Source: Burkholderiales bacterium
GTDB taxonomy: Bacteria > Pseudomonadota > Gammaproteobacteria > Burkholderiales > Burkholderiaceae_C
Assembly (NCBI GenBank): GCA_031418595.1
Contig: JANOXU010000267.1
Location: 1,848 to 65,847, forward strand
Length of the DNA stretch: 64,000 nt
Direction: 5' to 3'
The notes beneath the pieces are model-generated. The model was not told the DNA's origin, ran no database searches, and saw only the letters and a program-made list of their open reading frames with translations. Both the position numbers and the translations under genes were made by a program. Below, in pieces: positions 16,851-27,262 of the stretch (positions are counted from its first letter, which is position 1; the number at the start of each line of letters is the position of its first letter).

Positions 16851-16958
16851 ATTGCAGCAAGCGAGAATGCCCGCGATGTCTTCATGCCCAGCTACGGCAC
16901 ACCGCCTGAGTTTCGCCGCCCAGGCGGGTGTGCTGGCGCGTTCAACCCAGGTGATCGA

Positions 16959-19349
16959 ATGACCCGCCGCTTCGGCCTGTTCCCCAAGTACACGCTGCTC
17001 ATCATCGCCTTGGTGGGTTCGCTGCTGGTGGCCAGCGGCGCGGTGGGCCTGTACTTTTCGTACCACGAGAACCAAGACAGCCTGGTGGCCTTGCAGTTTG
17101 AAAAGGCCCAGGCCGCGGCCACGCGCATCGAGCAATATGTTTTGGACATCGAACAGCAGGTGAGCTGGACCGCGCTGCCCGGCATGGACGGCGGGGCCGA
17201 CCCGGCCGAACAGCGCCGCATCGATTACCTCAAGCTGCTGCGCCAGGCGCCGGCCATCACCGAAGCGGCCTGGATCGATGCCAAGGGCGTGGAACAACTG
17301 CGTGTGTCGCGCCTGGCCATGGATGCCGTGGGCCGCGGCACCGACTACTCTGCCGCCCCGATGTTCACTGTGCCCATGGCCGGCAAGGTGTTCCACAGCC
17401 CGGTGTCGTTTCGCAAAGAGACCGAGCCATACCTGACCGTGTCGCGCCGTGCCGGTCCAGGTGGGGGTGTGACGGCGGTCGACGTGAATTTGAAGTTCGT
17501 GTGGGATGTGGTGTCGCGCATCAAGATTGGTGATGCCGGCCTGGCTTATGTGGTGGACGACAAAGGCACGCTCATCGCCCACCCCGACATCAGCCTGGTG
17601 CTGCAAAAGAGTGACCTGTCCAAACTGCCACAGGTGGCCGTGGCCATCGGCGCGAAGGCGCAGCGCGCAGCGGGTGATGCTGCCATGGTGGAAAAGGCGC
17701 GCAATGCGCGCGGCGGGCGCGTCTTGGCCGCGCACGCCAGCATCCCCACGCTGGGCTGGACGGTGTTTGTCGAGTCGCCCCGCTCTGAAGCGTTCGCACC
17801 GTTGTACGAAACCCTGGCCCGCATGGCCCTGGTGCTGGCGCTGGGCCTGGGGCTGTCGGTGGTGGCCAGCTTCTTCTTGGCGCGCACGCTGGTGCGGCCG
17901 ATTCGCGCCATTCAAGACGGTGCTGAGCGTGTGGCGCAAGGCGATCTGGATCATCACATTGAAGTCAAGAGCCACGACGAGCTGCAAGTGTTGGCCGGTC
18001 AATTCAACCGCATGAGCAGCGAGCTGAAGGCTTCGTACACCGGCCTGGAACGCAAGGTCGATGCGCGCACGGCCGAGCTGCAAGAGGCGTTGGACTACCA
18101 AACCGCCAGCGGTGACGTGCTCAAGGTCATCAGCCAGTCTCCTGGCAGCGTCTTGCCCGTGTTCGAGGTGATCCTGGACAGCGCCAAACGCTTGTTCGGT
18201 GCGTCGATGGCAGCGGTGTTTCGTTACGAGGCGGGCAATGTGGCGATCGTGGCCACACGCAATTGGTCAGCACAGGCCATTGAAGACGCGAAGCGGCACT
18301 ATCCCGGGCCAGTGAACCCTGGCATGGTCACAGGCCGGGCGATCCTGACACGACAAGTGGTGAACCAGCCCGATGTGCGCAACGACCCCCACTACGACAA
18401 GGCCACCGCCGCGGCAGGCGGCTGGCGGCGCCTGCTGGCGGCGCCTTTGCTGCGCGAGGGCGAACCCATTGGCGTGATCACCGTTGCCTGGCACGAACCC
18501 GGCGACACGCCACCGCGCCAGCAGGCCTTGGTGCGCACCTTTGCCGACCAGGCCGTCATTGCCCTTGAAAACGCCCGCCTGTTCAACGACCTGCAAGACA
18601 AAACCCGCCAGCTCGAAGCCGCCAACCGCCACAAGAGCGAATTCCTGGCCAACATGAGCCACGAGTTGCGCACGCCGCTGAACGCCATCATCGGTTTTTC
18701 AGAAGCGCTCATCGAGAAGATGTTTGGCGACGTGAACGACAAGCAGATGGAATACCTGCAAGACATTCACTCCTCGGGCCACCACTTGCTCAGCCTGATC
18801 AACGACGTGCTCGACCTGAGCAAGATCGAGGCTGGGCGCATGGAGCTGGATCTGAGTTGTTTCGATCTGGGCCAGTTGCTGGAGCATTCCACCATGCTGG
18901 TGCGCGAACGTGCCCAGCGCCATGGCTTGGCATTAACCTTAGAGGTGAGCGACGACCTGGCCGAGTGGGTGGGCGACGCGCGCAAGATCAAGCAAGCGGT
19001 GGTGAACCTGCTCAGCAACGCGGTCAAGTTCACGCCCAACGGCGGGCGCGTCACGCTGCGCGCCCGGTTGCTCAACGAATGGCAGGGCCAGGGCGGCGCG
19101 TTTGCGCTGGTGTCGGTGCAAGACACCGGCGTGGGCATTGCACCGGGCGATCAGGAACTGGTGTTCGAGGAATTCCGCCAGGCCGGTGGCGACGTGCTGC
19201 GCAAGAGCGAAGGCACGGGGCTGGGCCTGGCGCTGGTGAAGCGCTTTGTGGAACTGCACGGCGGCAGCGTCACGCTGCAAAGCGCGCCGGGCGCCGGTTC
19301 CACCTTCAGCTTTGTGTTGCCGCAGCATGAATTGAAAGCCCTCCAATGA
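16959..19349 (+). CDS. Sensor histidine kinase: TM-periplasmic Cache-TM-HAMP-GAF-HisKA-HATPase
   Basis: Start MTRRFGLF at 16959; two hydrophobic helices; HAMP (DELQVLAGQFNRM); GAF (LAAPLLREGEPIGVI...FADQAVIALENARLF); H-box FLANMSHELRTP; N/G boxes NAVKFT, DTGVGI, GTGLGL. Confidence 0.92.
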   Translation: MTRRFGLFPKYTLLIIALVGSLLVASGAVGLYFSYHENQDSLVALQFEKAQAAATRIEQYVLDIEQQVSWTALPGMDGGADPAEQRRIDYLKLLRQAPAITEAAWIDAKGVEQLRVSRLAMDAVGRGTDYSAAPMFTVPMAGKVFHSPVSFRKETEPYLTVSRRAGPGGGVTAVDVNLKFVWDVVSRIKIGDAGLAYVVDDKGTLIAHPDISLVLQKSDLSKLPQVAVAIGAKAQRAAGDAAMVEKARNARGGRVLAAHASIPTLGWTVFVESPRSEAFAPLYETLARMALVLALGLGLSVVASFFLARTLVRPIRAIQDGAERVAQGDLDHHIEVKSHDELQVLAGQFNRMSSELKASYTGLERKVDARTAELQEALDYQTASGDVLKVISQSPGSVLPVFEVILDSAKRLFGASMAAVFRYEAGNVAIVATRNWSAQAIEDAKRHYPGPVNPGMVTGRAILTRQVVNQPDVRNDPHYDKATAAAGGWRRLLAAPLLREGEPIGVITVAWHEPGDTPPRQQALVRTFADQAVIALENARLFNDLQDKTRQLEAANRHKSEFLANMSHELRTPLNAIIGFSEALIEKMFGDVNDKQMEYLQDIHSSGHHLLSLINDVLDLSKIEAGRMELDLSCFDLGQLLEHSTMLVRERAQRHGLALTLEVSDDLAEWVGDARKIKQAVVNLLSNAVKFTPNGGRVTLRARLLNEWQGQGGAFALVSVQDTGVGIAPGDQELVFEEFRQAGGDVLRKSEGTGLGLALVKRFVELHGGSVTLQSAPGAGSTFSFVLPQHELKALQ

Positions 19350-19723
19350 GCCGCATCCTGATCGTTGAAGACAACGCCAAGAACATGAAGCTGGTGCGCG
19401 ATTTGCTGCAACACCGCGGCCATGAAACCCTGGAAGCCGAAGACGGTGAAACCGGGGTGGCGTTGGCCCTGGCGCAGCGGCCCGAGCTGATCCTGATGGA
19501 CATTCAGTTGCCCGACATCAGCGGCGTCACCGCGCTGGCGCGTATCCGCGAAGATGCCTCGCTCGACGCCGTGCCTTGTTTGGCCGTGTCAGCCTCGGTG
19601 ATGCCCGACGAGCAGCAACGTATCGTGGCCTCGGGCTTCGATGGCTTCATCGCCAAGCCAATTTCTTTGAAGACGTTCCTGGCGGCCGTGGACGCTGCAC
19701 TCAGCAACGGCCGCAAAGCATGA
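19346..19723 (+). CDS. Single-domain response regulator (DivK-like receiver)
   Basis: ILIVEDN, LILMDIQLP, GFDGFIAKP; ATGA overlap with the kinase. Confidence 0.93.
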   Translation: MSRILIVEDNAKNMKLVRDLLQHRGHETLEAEDGETGVALALAQRPELILMDIQLPDISGVTALARIREDASLDAVPCLAVSASVMPDEQQRIVASGFDGFIAKPISLKTFLAAVDAALSNGRKA

Positions 19724-20847
19724 CTGACGCAGCAGGTGGCCACATCCTCGTCGTTGACGACGTGGAAAAGAACGCCCGTCTGCTGGCCGATGTGCTCACT
19801 GCCAAAGGCTTTCGCACGCGCACCGCGCTGTCGGGCGAGGCTGCGCTGCAAGACGTGGCGGCGCACCCGCCCAGCCTGATCTTGCTCGACGTGATGATGC
19901 CGGGCATCAGCGGCTACGACGTCTGCCGCACGCTGCGCGCCGACCCGGCGCATGCCGTGTTGCCCATCGTGCTGGTCACGGCACTCGACCCGAGCACGGA
20001 GCGCGTGAAAGGCCTGGAGGCGGGTGCTGACGACTTCTTGAGCAAGCCGGTGAATCAAGCCGAACTGCTGGCGCGCGTGCGTTCGCTGTTGCGCATCAAG
20101 ACGCTGTATGACGAAGTGCAGCGCCAAAAGGCCGAGCTGCAGCAATGGAACCAGTCGCTCGAACAGCGTGTGGCCGATGGCGTGCGGCAACTCGAACAAG
20201 TGGGCCGCCTGAAGCGCTTTTTCTCACCGCAACTGGCCGACATGCTGGTGCAAGGCGGCGACGAACTGCTCAAGACGCACCGCCGCGAGATTTGCGTCGT
20301 GTTCATCGACTTGCGCGGCTTCACCACCTTCACCGAACGTGCTGAACCCGAAGAGGTGATGGAGTTGCTGCACAGCTACCACCAGGCCATGGGTCAGATC
20401 GTGGTGGCGCACAGCGGCACGCTGGAGCGTTTTGCCGGCGACTCGGTGATGGTGTTTTTCAACGACCCCGTGCCCATCGACAAGCCGGCCGAAGCCGCCG
20501 TGCGCATGGCCTTGCAAATGCAGCAGGCCTTCACGCCGTTGGCCCAGGCGTGGGCCAAGCGCGGCTTTGATTTGGCGCTGGGCTGCGGCATCGCCCAGGG
20601 CTACGCCACGCTGGGTGCGATTGGCTTCGAGGGCCGCTGGGACTATGCCGCCATCGGCAACGTCACCAACATGGCCGCGCGCTTGTGCGGCGAGGCCGGC
20701 GGCGGCCAGGTGCTGGTCGACCGCAAGGCCATGGCCCACATTGAAGACCTGGTGCATGCCGCGCCGGTGGGGCCGCTGGTGCTGAAGGGGTTGGCGCAAC
20801 CGGTGATGGCGTTTGCCGTGTCGGAACTGAAACCATCGAACTCATGA
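19720..20847 (+). CDS. Receiver domain fused to class III adenylate/guanylate cyclase
   Basis: Start MTDAAG at 19720; REC (LVVDD, LLDVMMP, FLSKP); cyclase VFIDLRGFT, RFAGD, IGNVTNMAARL. Confidence 0.92.
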   Translation: MTDAAGGHILVVDDVEKNARLLADVLTAKGFRTRTALSGEAALQDVAAHPPSLILLDVMMPGISGYDVCRTLRADPAHAVLPIVLVTALDPSTERVKGLEAGADDFLSKPVNQAELLARVRSLLRIKTLYDEVQRQKAELQQWNQSLEQRVADGVRQLEQVGRLKRFFSPQLADMLVQGGDELLKTHRREICVVFIDLRGFTTFTERAEPEEVMELLHSYHQAMGQIVVAHSGTLERFAGDSVMVFFNDPVPIDKPAEAAVRMALQMQQAFTPLAQAWAKRGFDLALGCGIAQGYATLGAIGFEGRWDYAAIGNVTNMAARLCGEAGGGQVLVDRKAMAHIEDLVHAAPVGPLVLKGLAQPVMAFAVSELKPSNS

Positions 20848-21890
20848 GAGACAGACTGCAGATGAACGACGAAAGTGCTGTGCGCGCAGGCGGGTCAGAG
20901 CGGGTCGCGGTGCAGCCCGATGTGCTGCGCCGCGGCCTGGCCTTTTGTGCGCTGGCCTGGCCTGCCTGGCCGGCTGGCGCGCAGCAGCCCGGGCGCATCT
21001 ATCGGCTGGGTTGGCTCAGCAGCACCGAACGCCAGGAGCCCTATGCCTTGGCCATGGTGCAGCGTTTGCGCGAGTTGGGCTTTGTCGAAGGCGGCAACCT
21101 GAGCATCGAATTCAGGCTGGTGCCGGCACGCGAAGACGCCTTTTTGCGCATGGCCGAGGAGCTGGGCCGGCTGAATTGCGACGCGCTCTTTGCGTCGGGC
21201 CATCAGATCGGTCTGAGCGCCGCGTTGCAAGGCACGCAGCGCATTCCCATCATCACCGTGGCCAACGACATCGACCCCGTGGCCGCCGGCTTTGTGGCCA
21301 GCCTGGCGCGGCCCGGCGGGCGCATCACGGGTGTTTCGCAACTCATGAGCGAGTTGCCGGGCAAGCGCCTGGAAGTGGTGCGCGAGCTGCTGCCGCGGGC
21401 GCGCCGCGTGGCCGTGTTGGCCGACGCGGTGACCAAGCCGCAGTTGCAGGTCACTCGCGCTGCCGCGGCCAAACTCGGCTTTGAACTCGTGGTGCATGAA
21501 TTCGATGCCCCGCCCTACGACCTGCCCGCTGCCTTTGGCCGTTTCAAGCGGGCGGGCGCTGAAGTGATGGTGTCGCTGGCATCGGCTTTCTTCGCGGTGC
21601 AGCGCAAGGCCATCGTTGCGCTGGCCACCCAACACCGCTTGCCGGGCATCTTCCCGAATGCAGTGTGGGCAGACGCGGGTGGTTTGATGTCGTACGGGCC
21701 GAACTTCTTGGTGTCATACCGGCGTGCCGCCGACATTCTGGCCAAGGTCTTCAACGGCGCCGACCCGGCCGTGCTGCCGATGGAGCAGCCCCAGGTCATC
21801 GAGACGGTGCTCAACCTTGGCGTGGCCAAGCGCATGGGTGTGGCCATTCCACAGGCCATCGCGCTGCGGGCGGATCGGGTGGTCGAGTGA
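20844..21890 (+). CDS. Orphan ABC-type substrate-binding protein (COG2984 family), copy 3 (start 20844 or 20862)
   Basis: RRGLAF leader; YRLGWL, DPVAAGFVASLARPGGRITG, KRLEVVRELLP, GGLMSYGP, ADRVVE end; ATGA overlap with the cyclase. Confidence 0.88.
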   Translation: MRDRLQMNDESAVRAGGSERVAVQPDVLRRGLAFCALAWPAWPAGAQQPGRIYRLGWLSSTERQEPYALAMVQRLRELGFVEGGNLSIEFRLVPAREDAFLRMAEELGRLNCDALFASGHQIGLSAALQGTQRIPIITVANDIDPVAAGFVASLARPGGRITGVSQLMSELPGKRLEVVRELLPRARRVAVLADAVTKPQLQVTRAAAAKLGFELVVHEFDAPPYDLPAAFGRFKRAGAEVMVSLASAFFAVQRKAIVALATQHRLPGIFPNAVWADAGGLMSYGPNFLVSYRRAADILAKVFNGADPAVLPMEQPQVIETVLNLGVAKRMGVAIPQAIALRADRVVE

Positions 21891-21990
21891 AGGCCGCCCG
21901 GGGCAATGGCGGGCCGTTGCGCGCGTGCTCGTCGGCGCTTGCCCTTGGGCGCCCGGCGCGGGCAAGTTCTTGACCTTGAAAGGCAGCGCG

Positions 21991-23139
21991 ATGAAATGTG
22001 TCCTGGCCGGCTCCCGGTTCTTCGGCGCCTCGGTGTTGCAGGCGCTGCATCGGGAGCCGGGCATTGAATTCGCCGGCGTGGTGGTGCCCGCGGCCGACGA
22101 CCGCCTGGCCCTGGCCGCGCACACCCTGGGCGTGCCGGTGCACGTGCTGGCCAACCCGAAGCTGGTGCCCGGCGGGGCGATGCCTGAGGGCACCGAGCTG
22201 ATCATCGCCGCACATACGCACGCGCGGGTGAGCAATGAAGCGCTGCAACGTTCCAGATTAGGCGGCGTGGGCTACCACCCTTCGCTGCTGCCGCGCCACC
22301 GCGGCATTGCAGCCGTGGAGTGGACGGTGCTGCAAGGTGACGCCATTGCCGGGGGCTCGGTCTACCACCTGGCTGATGGCTGGGACAAAGGCGCCATCGC
22401 GGCGCAGGAATGGTGCTTCGTGCTGCCCGGCGAAGGCGCGCGCGAACTGTGGGAACGTGCCCTGGCGCCGCTGGGCCTGAAGCTGCTGGCGCAGGTGGTG
22501 CAACACGCGCGCTTGCAGGGTGCGCTGCCGGCGCAGATGCAGGACGAACGCTTTGCCACCAAGGCACCGCTGATGCGCAAGGCCGTGCTGCTGACGGAAG
22601 ACGCGCCGGCCGCGACCACGGCGCTGGTCGTCACCATCATGGGGCCTGACCGGCCAGGCATCGTGAGCCAGCTTGCCAGCCTGGCGCAGCGCCATGGCGC
22701 CAACTGGGCGGCCAGCCGCATGTCCAACCTGGCGGGCGAATTCGCCGGCATGGTGCACCTCGACGTGCCGCGCGACCACGCCGCCGCGCTGGCCGCCGCG
22801 CTGCGTGCGCTGCAAGGGCCTGGCCTGCGGGTGCAGGTGGCGCAGGGTGCGGGCTCGGCCGCGCCGGCCGGGCAGCGTGGCGTGTCGCTGGAACTGGTGG
22901 GCGAAGACCGGGTGGGCATCGTCAGCACGCTGGCGCGCCTGCTGGCCGAACGCGGCGTCAGCATCGAGCACATCCACACTGAAATCATCAATCCGCATGG
23001 CAGTGCCGCCGCCGCTTTCAAGGTAGTGGCCCATCTGCTGGTGCCCGCGGCCATGAGCAACGATGCGTTGCGCGAAGACCTGCAAGGCCTGGCGCGAGCG
23101 ATGATGCTGGACATCGCCCTGGGCGAGCACCAGCCCTGA
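21991..23139 (+). CDS. Formyltransferase/10-formyl-THF hydrolase-like domain fused to two C-terminal GcvR-like ACT domains
   Basis: Start MKCVLAG at 21991; GYHPSLLPRHRG...DGWDKG; ACT1 VTIMGPDRPGIV...MSNLAGEFAG; ACT2 LELVGEDRVGIV. Confidence 0.8.
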   Translation: MKCVLAGSRFFGASVLQALHREPGIEFAGVVVPAADDRLALAAHTLGVPVHVLANPKLVPGGAMPEGTELIIAAHTHARVSNEALQRSRLGGVGYHPSLLPRHRGIAAVEWTVLQGDAIAGGSVYHLADGWDKGAIAAQEWCFVLPGEGARELWERALAPLGLKLLAQVVQHARLQGALPAQMQDERFATKAPLMRKAVLLTEDAPAATTALVVTIMGPDRPGIVSQLASLAQRHGANWAASRMSNLAGEFAGMVHLDVPRDHAAALAAALRALQGPGLRVQVAQGAGSAAPAGQRGVSLELVGEDRVGIVSTLARLLAERGVSIEHIHTEIINPHGSAAAAFKVVAHLLVPAAMSNDALREDLQGLARAMMLDIALGEHQP

Positions 23140-23208: not shown

Positions 23209-24075
23209 ATGACCAGTGCCTTTGACCGCAGCGCCGAAGACATCGGCAACATCGTTCACCTGGAGCATGTGAACCTCACCCAGCCAGACCAACGCCTGGC
23301 CACGCAGTTTTATGTGAGCGCATTGGGCCTGACACGCGACCCCTACATGCAGACCGGCACCGACAACATGTGGGTCAACGCCGGGCGCACGCAGTTCCAC
23401 CTGCCCAGCGGCGCGGCGCAGCGTTTGCGCGGTACGGTGAACGTCGTGATTCCCGGCCGCCAGGCGCTGCTGGAGCGCCTGCGCCGCCACAGCGCGGGTT
23501 TGAGCGGCACCTTGTTTCGCTTTGCCGAACATGCCGACCATGTTGAAGCCCAGTGCCCCTGGGGCAACCGCCTGCGCTGCTACGAGCCCGACCCGGCGCG
23601 CTTCGGCGGCGTGCAACTCGGCATTGCCAGCATCGAGTTCGACGTGCCGCACGCCTGCGCCGTGCCCATTGCCGCCTTCTACAGCCAGGTGTTCCGCGCC
23701 CGCGCCAAGCTCAGCGCCACGCCCAGCGGTGCGCCCAGCGCCTGGGTACAGGTGGGCGCGGGGCAGGCGCTGTGGTTCACTGAATCAGCCGCGGTGCCGG
23801 CGCACTATGACGGCCATCACATCCAGCTTTACGTGGCCGACTTTTCCGGCCCGCACCGGCGCCTGGCCGAGCTGGCGCTGGTGAGCGAAGAAAGCAACGC
23901 GCACCAGTACCGCTTCACCGACATCGTCGACCCACAAACGCGCGAGCTGTGCTTCAGGCTCGAACACGAAGTGCGCAGCCTCACGCACCCGATGCACGGC
24001 CGGCCCTTGGTCAACCGCAACCCGCAGCAAAGCGCGCGCCACTACGTGCGCGGTGGTGATGCATTCATGCCCTGA
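23209..24075 (+). CDS. VOC/glyoxalase-like (two-module) hypothetical protein
   Basis: LEHVNL..FYVSALGL, QFHLP, HHIQLY patterns typical of VOC folds; RBS GGAG. Confidence 0.6.
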   Translation: MTSAFDRSAEDIGNIVHLEHVNLTQPDQRLATQFYVSALGLTRDPYMQTGTDNMWVNAGRTQFHLPSGAAQRLRGTVNVVIPGRQALLERLRRHSAGLSGTLFRFAEHADHVEAQCPWGNRLRCYEPDPARFGGVQLGIASIEFDVPHACAVPIAAFYSQVFRARAKLSATPSGAPSAWVQVGAGQALWFTESAAVPAHYDGHHIQLYVADFSGPHRRLAELALVSEESNAHQYRFTDIVDPQTRELCFRLEHEVRSLTHPMHGRPLVNRNPQQSARHYVRGGDAFMP

Positions 24076-24457
24076 GCGGCTTGCCCTGTTCAGGCGTCTG
24101 TTTGACGGCGACGTGCAGCGGGCCAGCATTTCGTTTCGCAACGCGCGGCAGCAAAGTCACCTGCGCCGCAATGTCCACAGCCTGACGGATGCTCGCGCTG
24201 ACGCAGCGCCGAGGAATGAATCGCCAGCCACGGCGTCGTTGGCCACCGCCAGTGCTACCCCTAACATCGAAACGCACGGGACTGCGGCATTGGTGGCAAA
24301 GTAGACGGCCTGTTCTGAGCGGCACGGCGCGCGTGGCCGTAGCGAGCCATGCGCCGTTTGACCTGCGAGATTGATCAGCTGTCACACCATGGTCTGCATT
24401 GACGAAGGTCGGGCACGAATGGTCGCACTGCAGCACAGTGCCGGCCTGCATCTCAGC

Positions 24458-27262
24458 ATGACGGATTCAGCGCCGTCTGGGCGCACGGTCTTCCTCAGCT
24501 ACAACCGCGAAAACGCCACGGCGGCGACGCAACTGCGCGACTGGCTGCGTGATGAAGGCCTGGACGTGTTCATGGACAACGTCCACCTCATCGCCGGCGA
24601 GCCCTGGCTGCAGCGCCTGAAGCAAGAAGTGGCGCAGGCCCGTGCGGTGGTCGTTTTGATGCGCCACGAAGGCCCGCGCGGCTTTGTGCTCGACGAAGTG
24701 AGCTGGTTCCTTGAACGCCACGCGCAGGCGCTGGCCCTGAAGCTGCCCGCGCCGGGTTTGTTTCCGGTTTGTCTGGGCGAGGTACCCGAAGAGCAGGCGC
24801 TCGATGCGCGCGTGCACGCGCTGCTGAAGTTTCAGGTCACGCTTTGGCAACCCGGGCAAGCCATGCCCACCGCTTTGCTCGATGCCCTGCGCAAACTGCT
24901 GCCGTCGGAACACTTCGCGCCCCAGCATTGCCCGTTCCGTGGCCTGGCCACCTTTGAAGAGAGCGACGCCGCGTGGTTCTTCGGCCGCAAGCGCGAAACG
25001 CACGAGGTGACCGACGGCCTGGGCAGCGCGCCCGCAGCCGACGGCACATTCGACCGGCAAGCGCCGGGCCACCGCCGTTATGCGCTGATCAGCGGCGACA
25101 GCGGTTCGGGCAAGTCCTCGCTGCTGCGTGCCGGAGTGTTGCCGCTGCTGCGCGCAGGCGCCCTGTGGTCGCGCACCGGCCTGCGCCACTGGCGCGTCGT
25201 GGGCCCGCTGCGGCCCGGCGCCCGGCCGTTGGCCGAGCTGGAACGCGCACTCAGTGCGATGCTTGACGCGGCCCAGCCCGAGGCGCCGGCTGCGGCCCGG
25301 CTTGCGGCTTTGCGCGGCGATGCCGGCGCGCTGGTTGGCCTGCTCGCCAAGGTTCAGGTTGCGGACACCGGCGTGCTGCTGATCGTTGATCAGATGGAAG
25401 AGCTGCTGCAAACCAGTGTCGATGCGGGCGAGCGGCAGCAGTTTGGCGCGCTGCTGGCCATGGCCTTGCAAACCCCAAGCTGCCCGCTTTACCTGGTCGG
25501 CACCGTGCGGGCCGATGCCCTGGCCGAACTGGACACCTTGGAGCCCGAGTTGGTGCGCGCGCGCAACCGCTGCGGCCTGGTCTATACCTTGCCACGCATC
25601 ACCGAGTCGGGCCTGCGCCTGAGCATTGAAGAGCCGGCGCGCCGCGCGGGCGTCGACGTCAGCGAAGTGGCCGAACTGATTCTGGGCGAGGCGCACAACG
25701 AGCCCGGCGCCTTGGCCTTGGTGCAGCACGCGCTGTGGTCGTTGTGGCGCACGCAGCACCGGCGCGGGCCCGTCACCCGCTTGCTGCGCAGCGACCATGA
25801 AGCCGCCGGCGGCCTGGCCGGCATGCTCAGCCGCGATGCGGATGCCGCCCTGGAGCAGGTGAAGGCAGAGCTGGGCAGCGACGCCGGCGCGATGCAACTG
25901 TTGCGCCAAATGACCTGGGTGGGCGCCGAAGACCGGCTGTTCCGCCGCCGGTTGGGCCGCACCGAGGCCGAGTGGTGGGCCGGTGCGGGCGAGCGCGAAC
26001 GCGGCGCGCGGGTGATCGGCATGCTCTCAGGCCAAAGTGCAGCGACAGCAGATGCTGAACCCGGCATGGCCCCGGCAGCACATTTGCCGCTGTTAGTGAC
26101 CGGCAACGATGGCGGCGCCGAGCCCTACGTGGAGCTGGTGCACGAGATGCTGCTGCGCACGAGTGGGCGTTCCGGTGAGCCGGCGCGGCCGCATTGGCAG
26201 CGGCTGTATGAATTCATCCAGCGCCACTTGAACGAGCTCAAGCTCGAACAGCGCTTGCACGCCGACGTGCACACCTGGCGCCAGCTCAGCTTCTGGCAAC
26301 GCTGGCGCCGCCTGGCCAGCTTCAAAGAGCAGCGCCAATACGCACGCTTGCCGCGTTCAGCCGATGCCAACACGCGGCGCTATTTGGCGTTCAGCCGCAG
26401 CAAGTCGGGCGTGCTGGTGGCCGCTGTGGCGCTGCCCTTGGCTTACCTGGGCGTGGGCAGCTACTTTATTTTCCAGCAGGGCAATATTTTTCCCATCAAC
26501 TACGCCACGCGGCTGCCGCTGTGGGCACTGGGCATGGGCGCCGAACCTGAGTTCGCGCGCCTGCCCGGCGCCACCGCGACCTTTGACTTTGGTTGCGACC
26601 CGGCACGCGACACGGTGGACAGGCAGGCTTGCGGCGGCGGCTACTTGCCGCTGCAACGCGCTTTCAGCCAGCCCATTCGTTGCGACATGGGCCGCCACGA
26701 GGTCAGCTTCGAACAGTTCGATCGTTTCGTTTTCAGCCAGCGACGTGCCGGCGCCGCACAACACCCGTATCCCGCGCCGGGCGAGAAGGTTCGCGGCGAG
26801 CAGCCGGTGATGGAGGTTTCACGCGCCGATGCGCAGGCCTACGCGGCATGGCTAAGCGCGCGCAGCAACCCACCGCAGCGGTATCGGTTGCCGCTGGAAT
26901 GGGAATGGGAATACGCCGCCCGCGCCGGCTCCAGCGGGCCCTACCCGTGGGGCACCGAGTCGCCCGTGGGCCGCGCCAATTTCGACGACAACGGCCCGGC
27001 CACGCCCGCGGCGCGGCCGGTGCGCAGCGGCCAGCCCAATGCCTTCGGCCTGCACCATGTGGTGGGCAATGTGAGCGAATGGGTGGCCGACGATGCCAAC
27101 CCCTTCACGGCCTCGGCGCCGCAGCATGTTTCACGCGGCGGCTCTTTCGCTCAAGGCGCCTCGCGGGTACGGGTGGCGGCGCGCCAGTCCATGGAACCCG
27201 ATCAAGCGGGCGACACGAGCACGGCCACCAACATTGGCTTCAGGCTTTGTCGGGAAAGATGA
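24458..27262 (+). CDS. TIR - nSTAND1 NTPase - transmembrane helix - FGE-sulfatase (SUMF1-like) protein (start 24458; 24419 possible)
   Basis: TIR: VFLSYNRE...FMD...GEPW...FVLDEV. Linker CPFRGLATFEESDAAWFFGR. Walker A GDSGSGKSS; Walker B LIVDQMEE; ELVHEMLL..HWQRL. TM VLVAAVALPLAYLGVGSYFIF. FGE: RLPLEWEWEYAAR, PNAFGLHHVVGNVSEW, RGGSF, IGFRL. Confidence 0.88.
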   Translation: MTDSAPSGRTVFLSYNRENATAATQLRDWLRDEGLDVFMDNVHLIAGEPWLQRLKQEVAQARAVVVLMRHEGPRGFVLDEVSWFLERHAQALALKLPAPGLFPVCLGEVPEEQALDARVHALLKFQVTLWQPGQAMPTALLDALRKLLPSEHFAPQHCPFRGLATFEESDAAWFFGRKRETHEVTDGLGSAPAADGTFDRQAPGHRRYALISGDSGSGKSSLLRAGVLPLLRAGALWSRTGLRHWRVVGPLRPGARPLAELERALSAMLDAAQPEAPAAARLAALRGDAGALVGLLAKVQVADTGVLLIVDQMEELLQTSVDAGERQQFGALLAMALQTPSCPLYLVGTVRADALAELDTLEPELVRARNRCGLVYTLPRITESGLRLSIEEPARRAGVDVSEVAELILGEAHNEPGALALVQHALWSLWRTQHRRGPVTRLLRSDHEAAGGLAGMLSRDADAALEQVKAELGSDAGAMQLLRQMTWVGAEDRLFRRRLGRTEAEWWAGAGERERGARVIGMLSGQSAATADAEPGMAPAAHLPLLVTGNDGGAEPYVELVHEMLLRTSGRSGEPARPHWQRLYEFIQRHLNELKLEQRLHADVHTWRQLSFWQRWRRLASFKEQRQYARLPRSADANTRRYLAFSRSKSGVLVAAVALPLAYLGVGSYFIFQQGNIFPINYATRLPLWALGMGAEPEFARLPGATATFDFGCDPARDTVDRQACGGGYLPLQRAFSQPIRCDMGRHEVSFEQFDRFVFSQRRAGAAQHPYPAPGEKVRGEQPVMEVSRADAQAYAAWLSARSNPPQRYRLPLEWEWEYAARAGSSGPYPWGTESPVGRANFDDNGPATPAARPVRSGQPNAFGLHHVVGNVSEWVADDANPFTASAPQHVSRGGSFAQGASRVRVAARQSMEPDQAGDTSTATNIGFRLCRER

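Follow-up and report, generated by a model that had tools for sequence, protein, structure and literature searches.

A bacterial fusion of an FDH-like formyltransferase-fold domain with tandem ACT domains: a candidate regulated 10-formyltetrahydrofolate deformylase

In bacteria, the balance between tetrahydrofolate (THF) and formyl-THF is thought to run mainly through PurU, a fusion of an ACT regulatory domain with a formyltransferase domain that is reportedly activated by methionine and inhibited by glycine (Nagy et al. 1995). GcvR, a tandem-ACT protein, works in E. coli through protein–protein contact with GcvA. The present analysis concerns a gene in which both kinds of module occur in one reading frame: a formyltransferase-fold catalytic domain, a linker, and two ACT domains, encoded at 21991..23139 (+ strand; 382 codons plus stop) of a 64,000-nucleotide stretch, hereafter the window, of contig JANOXU010000267.1 from the Burkholderiales bacterium assembly GCA_031418595.1. 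The gene belongs to a real and recurrent bacterial family with a common fusion architecture and fold, conserved catalytic residues, and a fusion of single origin.

Two further described systems bear on the catalytic half. The first is the hydrolase domain of 10-formyl-THF dehydrogenase (FDH, ALDH1L1), for which His106, Ser108, Arg114, and Ile104 have been numbered (PMC4388273, PMC6802093). The roles of its catalytic residues have been described, as has the holding of the pterin mostly through backbone atoms; Ile104 occupies the position taken by the catalytic Asn in FMT, ArnA, and GART (PMC4388273). The second is HypX's N-terminal domain, proposed to pass the formyl group of 10-formyl-THF to CoA, giving formyl-CoA (PMC6802093). 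For the ACT half, GcvR binds glycine according to a passage of PMC4894688 that cites Heil et al. 2002.

An FDH-like catalytic domain

The first-pass annotation, made from the sequence alone, had read the gene as one open reading frame (ORF) joining a formyltransferase fold to a GcvR-like tandem ACT module. Translation and Pfam bear out its coordinates and both catalytic motifs, and the C-terminal half shares its fold with the tandem-ACT structures 2nyi and 1u8s. The catalytic domain (residues 1–196; 21991..22578, +) was delimited by PF00551, phmmer against the PDB, an AlphaFold2 (AF2) model, and VIA-align, and has a Rossmann-like formyltransferase fold with GxxxFG at residues 7–12. It scores 66.5 bits against Formyl_trans_N (PF00551; cut-off 26.1), the match covering residues 67–158 (E 3.4e-18), and it carries both hallmarks of the superfamily, the HxSLLPxxxG signature (H96 to G105) and the catalytic Asp D132. 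The signature lies within G94-Y-H96-P-S98-L-L-P-R-H-R104-G105 (GYHPSLLPRHRG; residues 94–105; 22270..22305, +), where Gly replaces the catalytic Asn. The loop D129-G-W-D132-K-G134 (DGWDKG; 22375..22392, +), placed by alignment and conservation, supplies the counterpart of FDH Asp142 and the predicted pterin-binding backbone.

Among solved proteins, the FDH N-terminal hydrolase domains were the best phmmer matches (E 2.6e-23 to 1e-20 over query residues 1–208, 32–36% identity), followed by Fmt (3e-12), with PurN and PurU far weaker; Foldseek returned FDH hydrolase domains at E 3.5e-18 and 33–36% identity, so that both kinds of match far exceed what chance would give. The AF2 model, built from a 94-sequence alignment, has a mean predicted local distance difference test score (pLDDT) of 91.6, with values of 93–98 across the catalytic domain and below 50 only at residues 197–204, within the inter-domain linker (residues 197–208; 22579..22614, +), and at the last three residues. 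Its predicted template modeling score (pTM) of 0.62 leaves the mutual placement of the catalytic and ACT halves unfixed. VIA-align superposed the catalytic domain on FDH hydrolase domains with Z 27–28, a root-mean-square deviation (rmsd) of 1.6–1.9, and 194–195 aligned residues (4qpd: Z 28.0, rmsd 1.6, 195 aligned) and on Fmt with Z 26–27, effectively tied with FDH in fold; ArnA (Z 24–26), sugar N-formyltransferases (Z about 22), GART (Z about 21), and HypX (Z about 20–21) followed.

Alignment to FDH equates His96 with His106, Ser98 with Ser108, Arg104 with Arg114, Asp132 with Asp142, and Gly94 with Ile104. In an alignment of 122 relatives, comprising 44 fusions and stand-alone forms of the domain, the four catalytic residues are strictly kept (H96 in 119/121, S98 in 119/122, R104 in 122/122, and D132 in 118/121), which argues for an active enzyme that uses 10-formyl-THF. 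Residues G7, F11, G134 (120/121), Q139, W154, and Q184 are likewise near-invariant, 108/122 relatives retain C142, and position 12 is Gly in 102/122 and Ala in 18; the exceptions L072, P0157, and P0234 look frameshifted or of low quality. The position that holds the Asn of amine-formylating transferases is Gly in 114/121 relatives. The missing Asn of the NxH motif had been noticed at first pass, together with the Asn-less YHPSLLPRHRG of FDH/ALDH1L1, and both observations hold: the genome also encodes Fmt, PurN, and PurU, all of which read N-I-H at the site where the fusion has Gly94, two residues ahead of His96, and the FDH motif is recovered in our alignments and in PMC4388273.

The ACT module, the stand-alone halves, and the origin of the fusion

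In the AF2 model, residues 209–379 form two beta-alpha-beta-beta-alpha-beta ACT units, each with the typical G-x-D-R-x-G loop between strand 1 and helix 1, a loop conserved among the fusions. ACT domain 1 (residues 209–287; 22615..22851, +; loop G218-x-D-R221-x-G223) matches Pfam ACT_6 (residues 212–274, E 2e-21), and ACT domain 2 (residues 295–379; 22873..23127, +; loop G304-x-D306-R307-x-G309) matches Pfam ACT (residues 299–348, E 4e-10) and ACT_4; predicted secondary structure for the first, the model for the second, and Foldseek and conservation for both agree with these limits. The fold is that of tandem-ACT proteins, with Foldseek matches to 2nyi (E 6.7e-16) and 1u8s (E 2.7e-12), whose depositors describe it as a putative glycine cleavage system transcriptional repressor, and a PDB phmmer match to 2nyi (2.1e-9). 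Orthology to GcvR itself was ruled out by the E. coli-type GcvR model NF008612, which scores 29.7 bits on the protein and 21.5 in the genome search against a cut-off of 267; the resemblance is one of fold.

Twelve stand-alone tandem-ACT loci, each from a different Burkholderiales genome, were examined. In 6/12, drawn from several families, the gene lies directly after gcvP with gcvT and gcvH alongside, and in L116 the same operon is present with an ACT gene that the gene caller did not call. These gcvTHP loci with a tandem-ACT gene of ~175 residues are L115–L121 (genomes G223, G161, G287, G246, G140, G092, and G117); GCV_T, GCV_H, and GDC-P were verified with Pfam at one locus, and the gcv-linked ACT proteins are 35–45% identical to fusion residues ~205–380. 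In Burkholderiales, this tandem-ACT gene is a conserved fourth member of the glycine-cleavage operon, and apparently an undescribed one; the glycine link is real for the wider tandem-ACT family. The stand-alone proteins closest to the fusion's own module (L114 and L124; SH-like approximate likelihood ratio test, SH-aLRT, 98) come from a neighboring Burkholderiales family, and one of them, in genome G098, coexists with a fusion gene. Judged from these relationships, the ACT module was recruited locally and added in one Burkholderiales lineage, as an accessory to a catalytic domain that widely exists as a stand-alone protein of ~195 residues.

A word-indexed search returned 2,593 matches. The best 120, which came from NCBI, ENA, JGI, and Logan sources, are all 376–404 residues long, 68–94% identical to the query, and have the same Pfam set. 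Matches are named just 'formyltransferase family protein', 'ACT domain-containing protein', or similar, and NCBIfam, ESM Atlas, and cluster names offered nothing more specific than 'formyltransferase family protein'. One-genome-per-species collections yielded the fusion from about 40 Sphaerotilaceae-type Burkholderiales genomes, isolates and a closed chromosome among them, in the genera Rhizobacter, Caldimonas, Aquabacterium, Pelomonas, Roseateles, Rubrivivax, Aquincola, and Polaromonas; in all, it is present in >40 Burkholderiales genomes and >100 metagenome clusters. Its distribution is patchy, with copies in 3/301 genomes sampled evenly over the order (an unpublished genome, G026, enters only the 35/301 order-level tally, and no conclusion depends on it) and in 8/121 sampled genera of its own family (about 7%), plus one genus with a stand-alone N-terminal domain. 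The copies have no internal stops, and full-length, unbroken versions at 58–94% identity come from many independent assemblies, among them the isolates Pelomonas sp. KK5 and Roseateles agri. Odd-length matches (P0124, P0143, and P0160) were set aside as apparent read-through or mis-calls.

Clustering at 50% identity placed the full-length form in very few clusters, alongside many catalytic-only proteins of ~190–235 residues (35–49% identity) and many tandem-ACT proteins of ~175 residues (38–50% identity). Stand-alone catalytic orthologues of ~195 residues, 57–70% identical over residues 1–195, occur in Bradyrhizobium, Afipia, Tardiphaga, Xanthobacteraceae, Casimicrobiaceae, and some Betaproteobacteria. 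One further stand-alone copy (L109), in a metagenome-assembled genome (MAG) labeled 'Gemmatimonas sp.', nests among Bradyrhizobium sequences with a common EamA/TGT synteny; since this synteny is shared with Nitrobacteraceae, the contig is probably mis-binned rather than evidence of cross-phylum transfer. Rosetta-stone co-occurrence of the separate halves was rejected: none of the five order-level genomes with a stand-alone N-terminal domain has a tandem-ACT match at E <= 1e-20, no ACT gene was found adjacent to the copy in G230, and the 174-residue ORF that follows the copy in G173 has no Pfam match.

In the N-domain tree, the fusions fall in one 47-row group (SH-aLRT 89) that includes three stand-alone proteins, L070, L071, and L078. 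The minimum number of state changes on this tree is two, so the pattern fits one fusion event followed by later loss. The first-pass annotation had further proposed that the gene was assembled independently of PurU and had weighed the chance that the fusion might be confined to its own assembly. The first proposal is upheld by the tree, in which PurU and PurN group together (100/99), apart from the fusion family, FDH, and Fmt, and by the order and number of the ACT domains; as to the second, dozens of independent assemblies carry the fusion.

Among longer fused forms, just eukaryote-type FDH and one 677-residue formyltransferase turned up. The FDH relatives P0292 and P0293 carry PF00171, with PF02911 also present in P0292. 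The 677-residue protein (P0294, from a JGI metagenome) is bacterial and combines Formyl_trans_N with Formyl_trans_C and the motif G-V-H-P-S-L-L-P-R-H-R-G, also without Asn; predicted Asn-less formyltransferases are thus not limited to the present family.

Proposed reaction, competing explanations, and genomic setting

We lean, with slightly more belief than doubt, toward a ligand-regulated 10-formyl-THF deformylase that frees THF; both the substrate and the choice of hydrolysis over transfer are inferred, as are the identity of the ligand and the direction in which it would regulate. The first-pass annotation had proposed an amino-acid-regulated deformylase or formyltransferase, a view that is partly supported. 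The product would be a cytosolic enzyme of ~41 kDa in which residues 1–196 bind 10-formyl-THF and the His96/Asp132 pair removes the formyl group with the assistance of Ser98 and Arg104, as in the FDH hydrolase domain, yielding free THF and formate, the latter either directly or via a transient formyl-thioester. The tandem ACT module would bind a small metabolite, and ligand binding would shift activity allosterically or by oligomerization. By analogy with PurU and the GcvR-like relatives, the most likely ligand would be an amino acid connected with one-carbon metabolism, and glycine the first candidate. The genome, which is 98% complete, already encodes PurU (327 bits, above the cut-off), PurN, and Fmt (on contig C158), so the enzyme would act as an accessory, differently regulated valve on the THF/formyl-THF balance. 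That it substitutes for PurU was rejected, given the canonical PurU retained in its own genome; the fusion itself scores only 14.1 bits against TIGR00655 (cut-off 285.95) and 20.7 against NF004684 (cut-off 223).

Several observations weigh against this proposal. The isolated FDH hydrolase domain needs a thiol (mercaptoethanol) in vitro, and its natural acceptor is the thiol of 4'-phosphopantetheine (PMC4388273, PMC6802093), so true hydrolysis is not the sole reading of the similarity. Deep nodes of the tree form a polytomy, and the Fmt fold is nearly as good a match. Sisterhood to eukaryotic FDH was accordingly dropped, and best similarity alone is claimed. On the regulatory side, the ACT tree unites the fusion module with L114 and L124, neither of them gcv-linked, and places the gcv-linked subfamily on the opposite side; the link of the fusion gene to glycine is therefore indirect. 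The loci examined for these closest stand-alone relatives have uninformative neighbors and no gcv genes. When ORFs were clustered across 85 loci, no neighbor proved to be conserved with the fusion, and an Rfam scan of the leader found no riboswitch, giving just a 17.5-bit chance match; hence no independent evidence connects the gene with either folate or glycine metabolism. Finally, the literature on ACT, PurU, or GcvR yielded nothing on this architecture and no biochemistry of any member.

The thiol dependence of FDH leads directly to a reading that is possible, if on balance doubtful, namely that the protein is a true formyl transferase moving the formyl group of 10-formyl-THF to an acceptor with a thiol or an amine group (CoA, pantetheine, holo-ACP, glutathione, or another metabolite) under ACT ligand control. 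The family and FDH both lack the Asn that amine-formylating transferases need (PMC4388273), and the HypX N-terminal domain, the proposed formyl-CoA maker, has the same fold (Z 20.7; PMC6802093). The own-genome PurU deformylase retains Asn, showing that an Asn-less state is unnecessary for plain hydrolysis; because of this, and because the natural acceptor of FDH is a thiol, a missing Asn alone does not mark a hydrolase. Acceptor genes are nonetheless wanting, with no carrier protein, CoA-utilizing, or acceptor-related gene conserved nearby in 80 or more loci; the fusion also has neither the C-terminal subdomain nor the carrier domains by which FDH, Fmt, and ArnA present the acceptor, and the ~195-residue stand-alone form has no evident second-substrate module. 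In a broader form of this idea, which we think rather unlikely, the ~195-residue Asn-less domain, which stands alone in Nitrobacteraceae, Casimicrobiaceae, and elsewhere and is joined to ACT domains in Sphaerotilaceae-type Burkholderiales, would be a free-living bacterial counterpart of the FDH N-terminal domain that forms a formyl-thioester on CoA, pantetheine, a carrier protein, or glutathione and, when fused, is gated by an amino acid that the GcvR-related ACT pair senses.

Strict retention of His96, Ser98, Arg104, and Asp132 in fused and stand-alone forms points to catalysis, and so makes improbable a noncatalytic role in which the folate-binding domain would sense and the GcvR-like tandem ACT module would act through protein–protein contacts. 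The fold of the C-terminal half would suit such a sensor; the fusion is also the sole ACT_6-type or GcvR-like gene found in a search of its genome, where gcvP is followed by transporter genes and no ACT gene, unlike the gcvTHP loci of other Burkholderiales. The same idea must accommodate the many genomes with a catalytic domain by itself, GcvR-model scores far short of the cut-off, and an ACT module nearest to a non-gcv-linked subfamily. That a frameshift or stop-loss in assembly or annotation joined two neighboring genes is ruled out by the recurrence of the fusion: the frameshift-like breaks seen in a few MAG copies (L072, P0157, and P0234) are set against full-length copies in many independent assemblies, isolates, and closed chromosomes, and the stand-alone halves are never adjacent to each other in the genomes examined. 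The best reading overall is a 10-formyl-THF deformylase or a thiol-directed formyl transferase, in either case under ligand control.

Turning to the locus itself, the reading frame stays open 5' back to a GTG at 21724, and we take the ATG at 21991 as the start because homologues of 378–404 residues align from residue 1 (coverage 99–100%) and the upstream gene ends at 21890. A candidate weak ribosome-binding site, GAAAGG (21978..21983, +), can be read 7 nucleotides 5' of this ATG; no sigma-70-like promoter was found upstream. The fusion gene looks monocistronic. Upstream (16884–21890, +) lie a Cache/GAF-type histidine kinase, a REC protein, a REC-adenylate/guanylate cyclase, and an ABC_sub_bind solute-binding protein, a signaling cluster syntenic with the fusion in the closest relatives only. 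REC-domain neighbors were discarded as chance matches to a ubiquitous domain, and neighbors of the unknown-205-residue, EamA, and TGT types as mere synteny inside Nitrobacteraceae.

Downstream, 70 nucleotides after the fusion gene, a 288-residue ORF (23209–24075, +) has no Pfam, NCBIfam, or PDB sequence match and is followed by a terminator-like hairpin (24071–24094). Its family is very large (7,949/8,000 scored candidates at E <= 0.001) and weakly annotated as glyoxalase/catechol-dioxygenase-like (VOC); the ORF was rejected as a partner, as it adjoins the fusion in the three closest relatives only. Further along (24371–27262, +), the window encodes a 963-residue protein of unusual architecture, TIR plus an nSTAND1 NTPase plus a C-terminal FGE-sulfatase (formylglycine-generating-enzyme-like) domain, possibly serving in defense or signaling. 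At one stand-alone catalytic locus, L070 (8001–11180), a gene 17 nucleotides after the catalytic gene encodes GTP_CH_N and GTP_cyclohydro2 (URC1-like) and is followed by a DUF1688 gene (URC4-like). ORF clustering placed a homologue of the adjacent gene in the related MAG L071. A link of the stand-alone domain to the pyrimidine (URC) pathway is possible; as a functional clue it was judged too narrow, L070 being the one locus at which it was examined.

Comparison with known systems

ACT-regulated folate enzymes are already known, which, together with the accessory status of the gene (about 7% of sampled own-family genera), limits the surprise: the general kind is familiar, and the fused form is new. 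If the deformylase reading is correct, the family offers a second, independently assembled solution to the control of formyl-THF, built from an FDH-like Asn-less lineage, with its domains in the opposite order and with two ACT domains as the sensor; if the formyl group instead passes to a thiol, it would connect the folate one-carbon pool with thioester or formate metabolism in a new and regulated way. In either case, the family is sizeable, bacterial, and uncharacterized, with the animal ALDH1L1 hydrolase domain as its closest solved relative, and its ~195-residue form is a simple system for asking how Asn-less formyltransferases pick water or a thiol as acceptor.

Of the curated bacterial models, Fmt (TIGR00460) scores best, at 61.7 bits; this is below its cut-off of 201.5, and the fusion differs from Fmt in lacking both the Asn and the C-terminal tRNA-binding domain, with a separate Fmt encoded in the same genome. 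The HypX N-terminal domain (6j0p, 6j1e) is a bacterial example of the FDH-like formyltransferase fold. It shares only 16% identity with the fusion, has Asp80 in place of the Ser of the triad, and is joined to an enoyl-CoA-hydratase-like C-terminal domain, of which Pfam finds none in the fusion, in a protein with a role in hydrogenase maturation. GcvR-like tandem-ACT proteins (NF008612; 1u8s, 2nyi) share the fold of the C-terminal 175 residues, and stand-alone Burkholderiales members are 35–53% identical to it; the fusion departs from them in its enzyme domain, its lack of gcv neighbors, and its nearest kin in the non-gcv-linked subfamily.

PurU (TIGR00655) is the nearest parallel in architecture. 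Both proteins pair a formyltransferase-fold domain with an ACT regulatory module, and they likely share an overall logic, the amino-acid control of the THF/formyl-THF balance. The fusion reverses the order, with the ACT module C-terminal, and has a pair of ACT domains where PurU has one; the catalytic lineage of PurU, in addition, is PurN-like and retains the Asn (NIHHSFLP in the PurU that this genome encodes).

FDH/ALDH1L1 is the nearest parallel in the catalytic domain. The fusion contains only the catalytic subdomain of ~200 residues, without the Formyl_trans_C, 4'-phosphopantetheine carrier, and aldehyde dehydrogenase (ALDH) domains by Pfam; it is bacterial and carries two ACT domains; and FDH Tyr200 and Phe89 are not conserved, their places being taken by Lys191 and Arg79. 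Against these differences stand the same fold, the highest sequence identity of any solved relative (32–36%), and a set of common motifs, namely GxxxFG, YHPSLLPRHRG, a DxG loop that holds the catalytic Asp, and Q..C. Both proteins keep the His, Ser, Arg, and Asp, and both lack the Asn, which is replaced by Ile in FDH and by Gly in the fusion.

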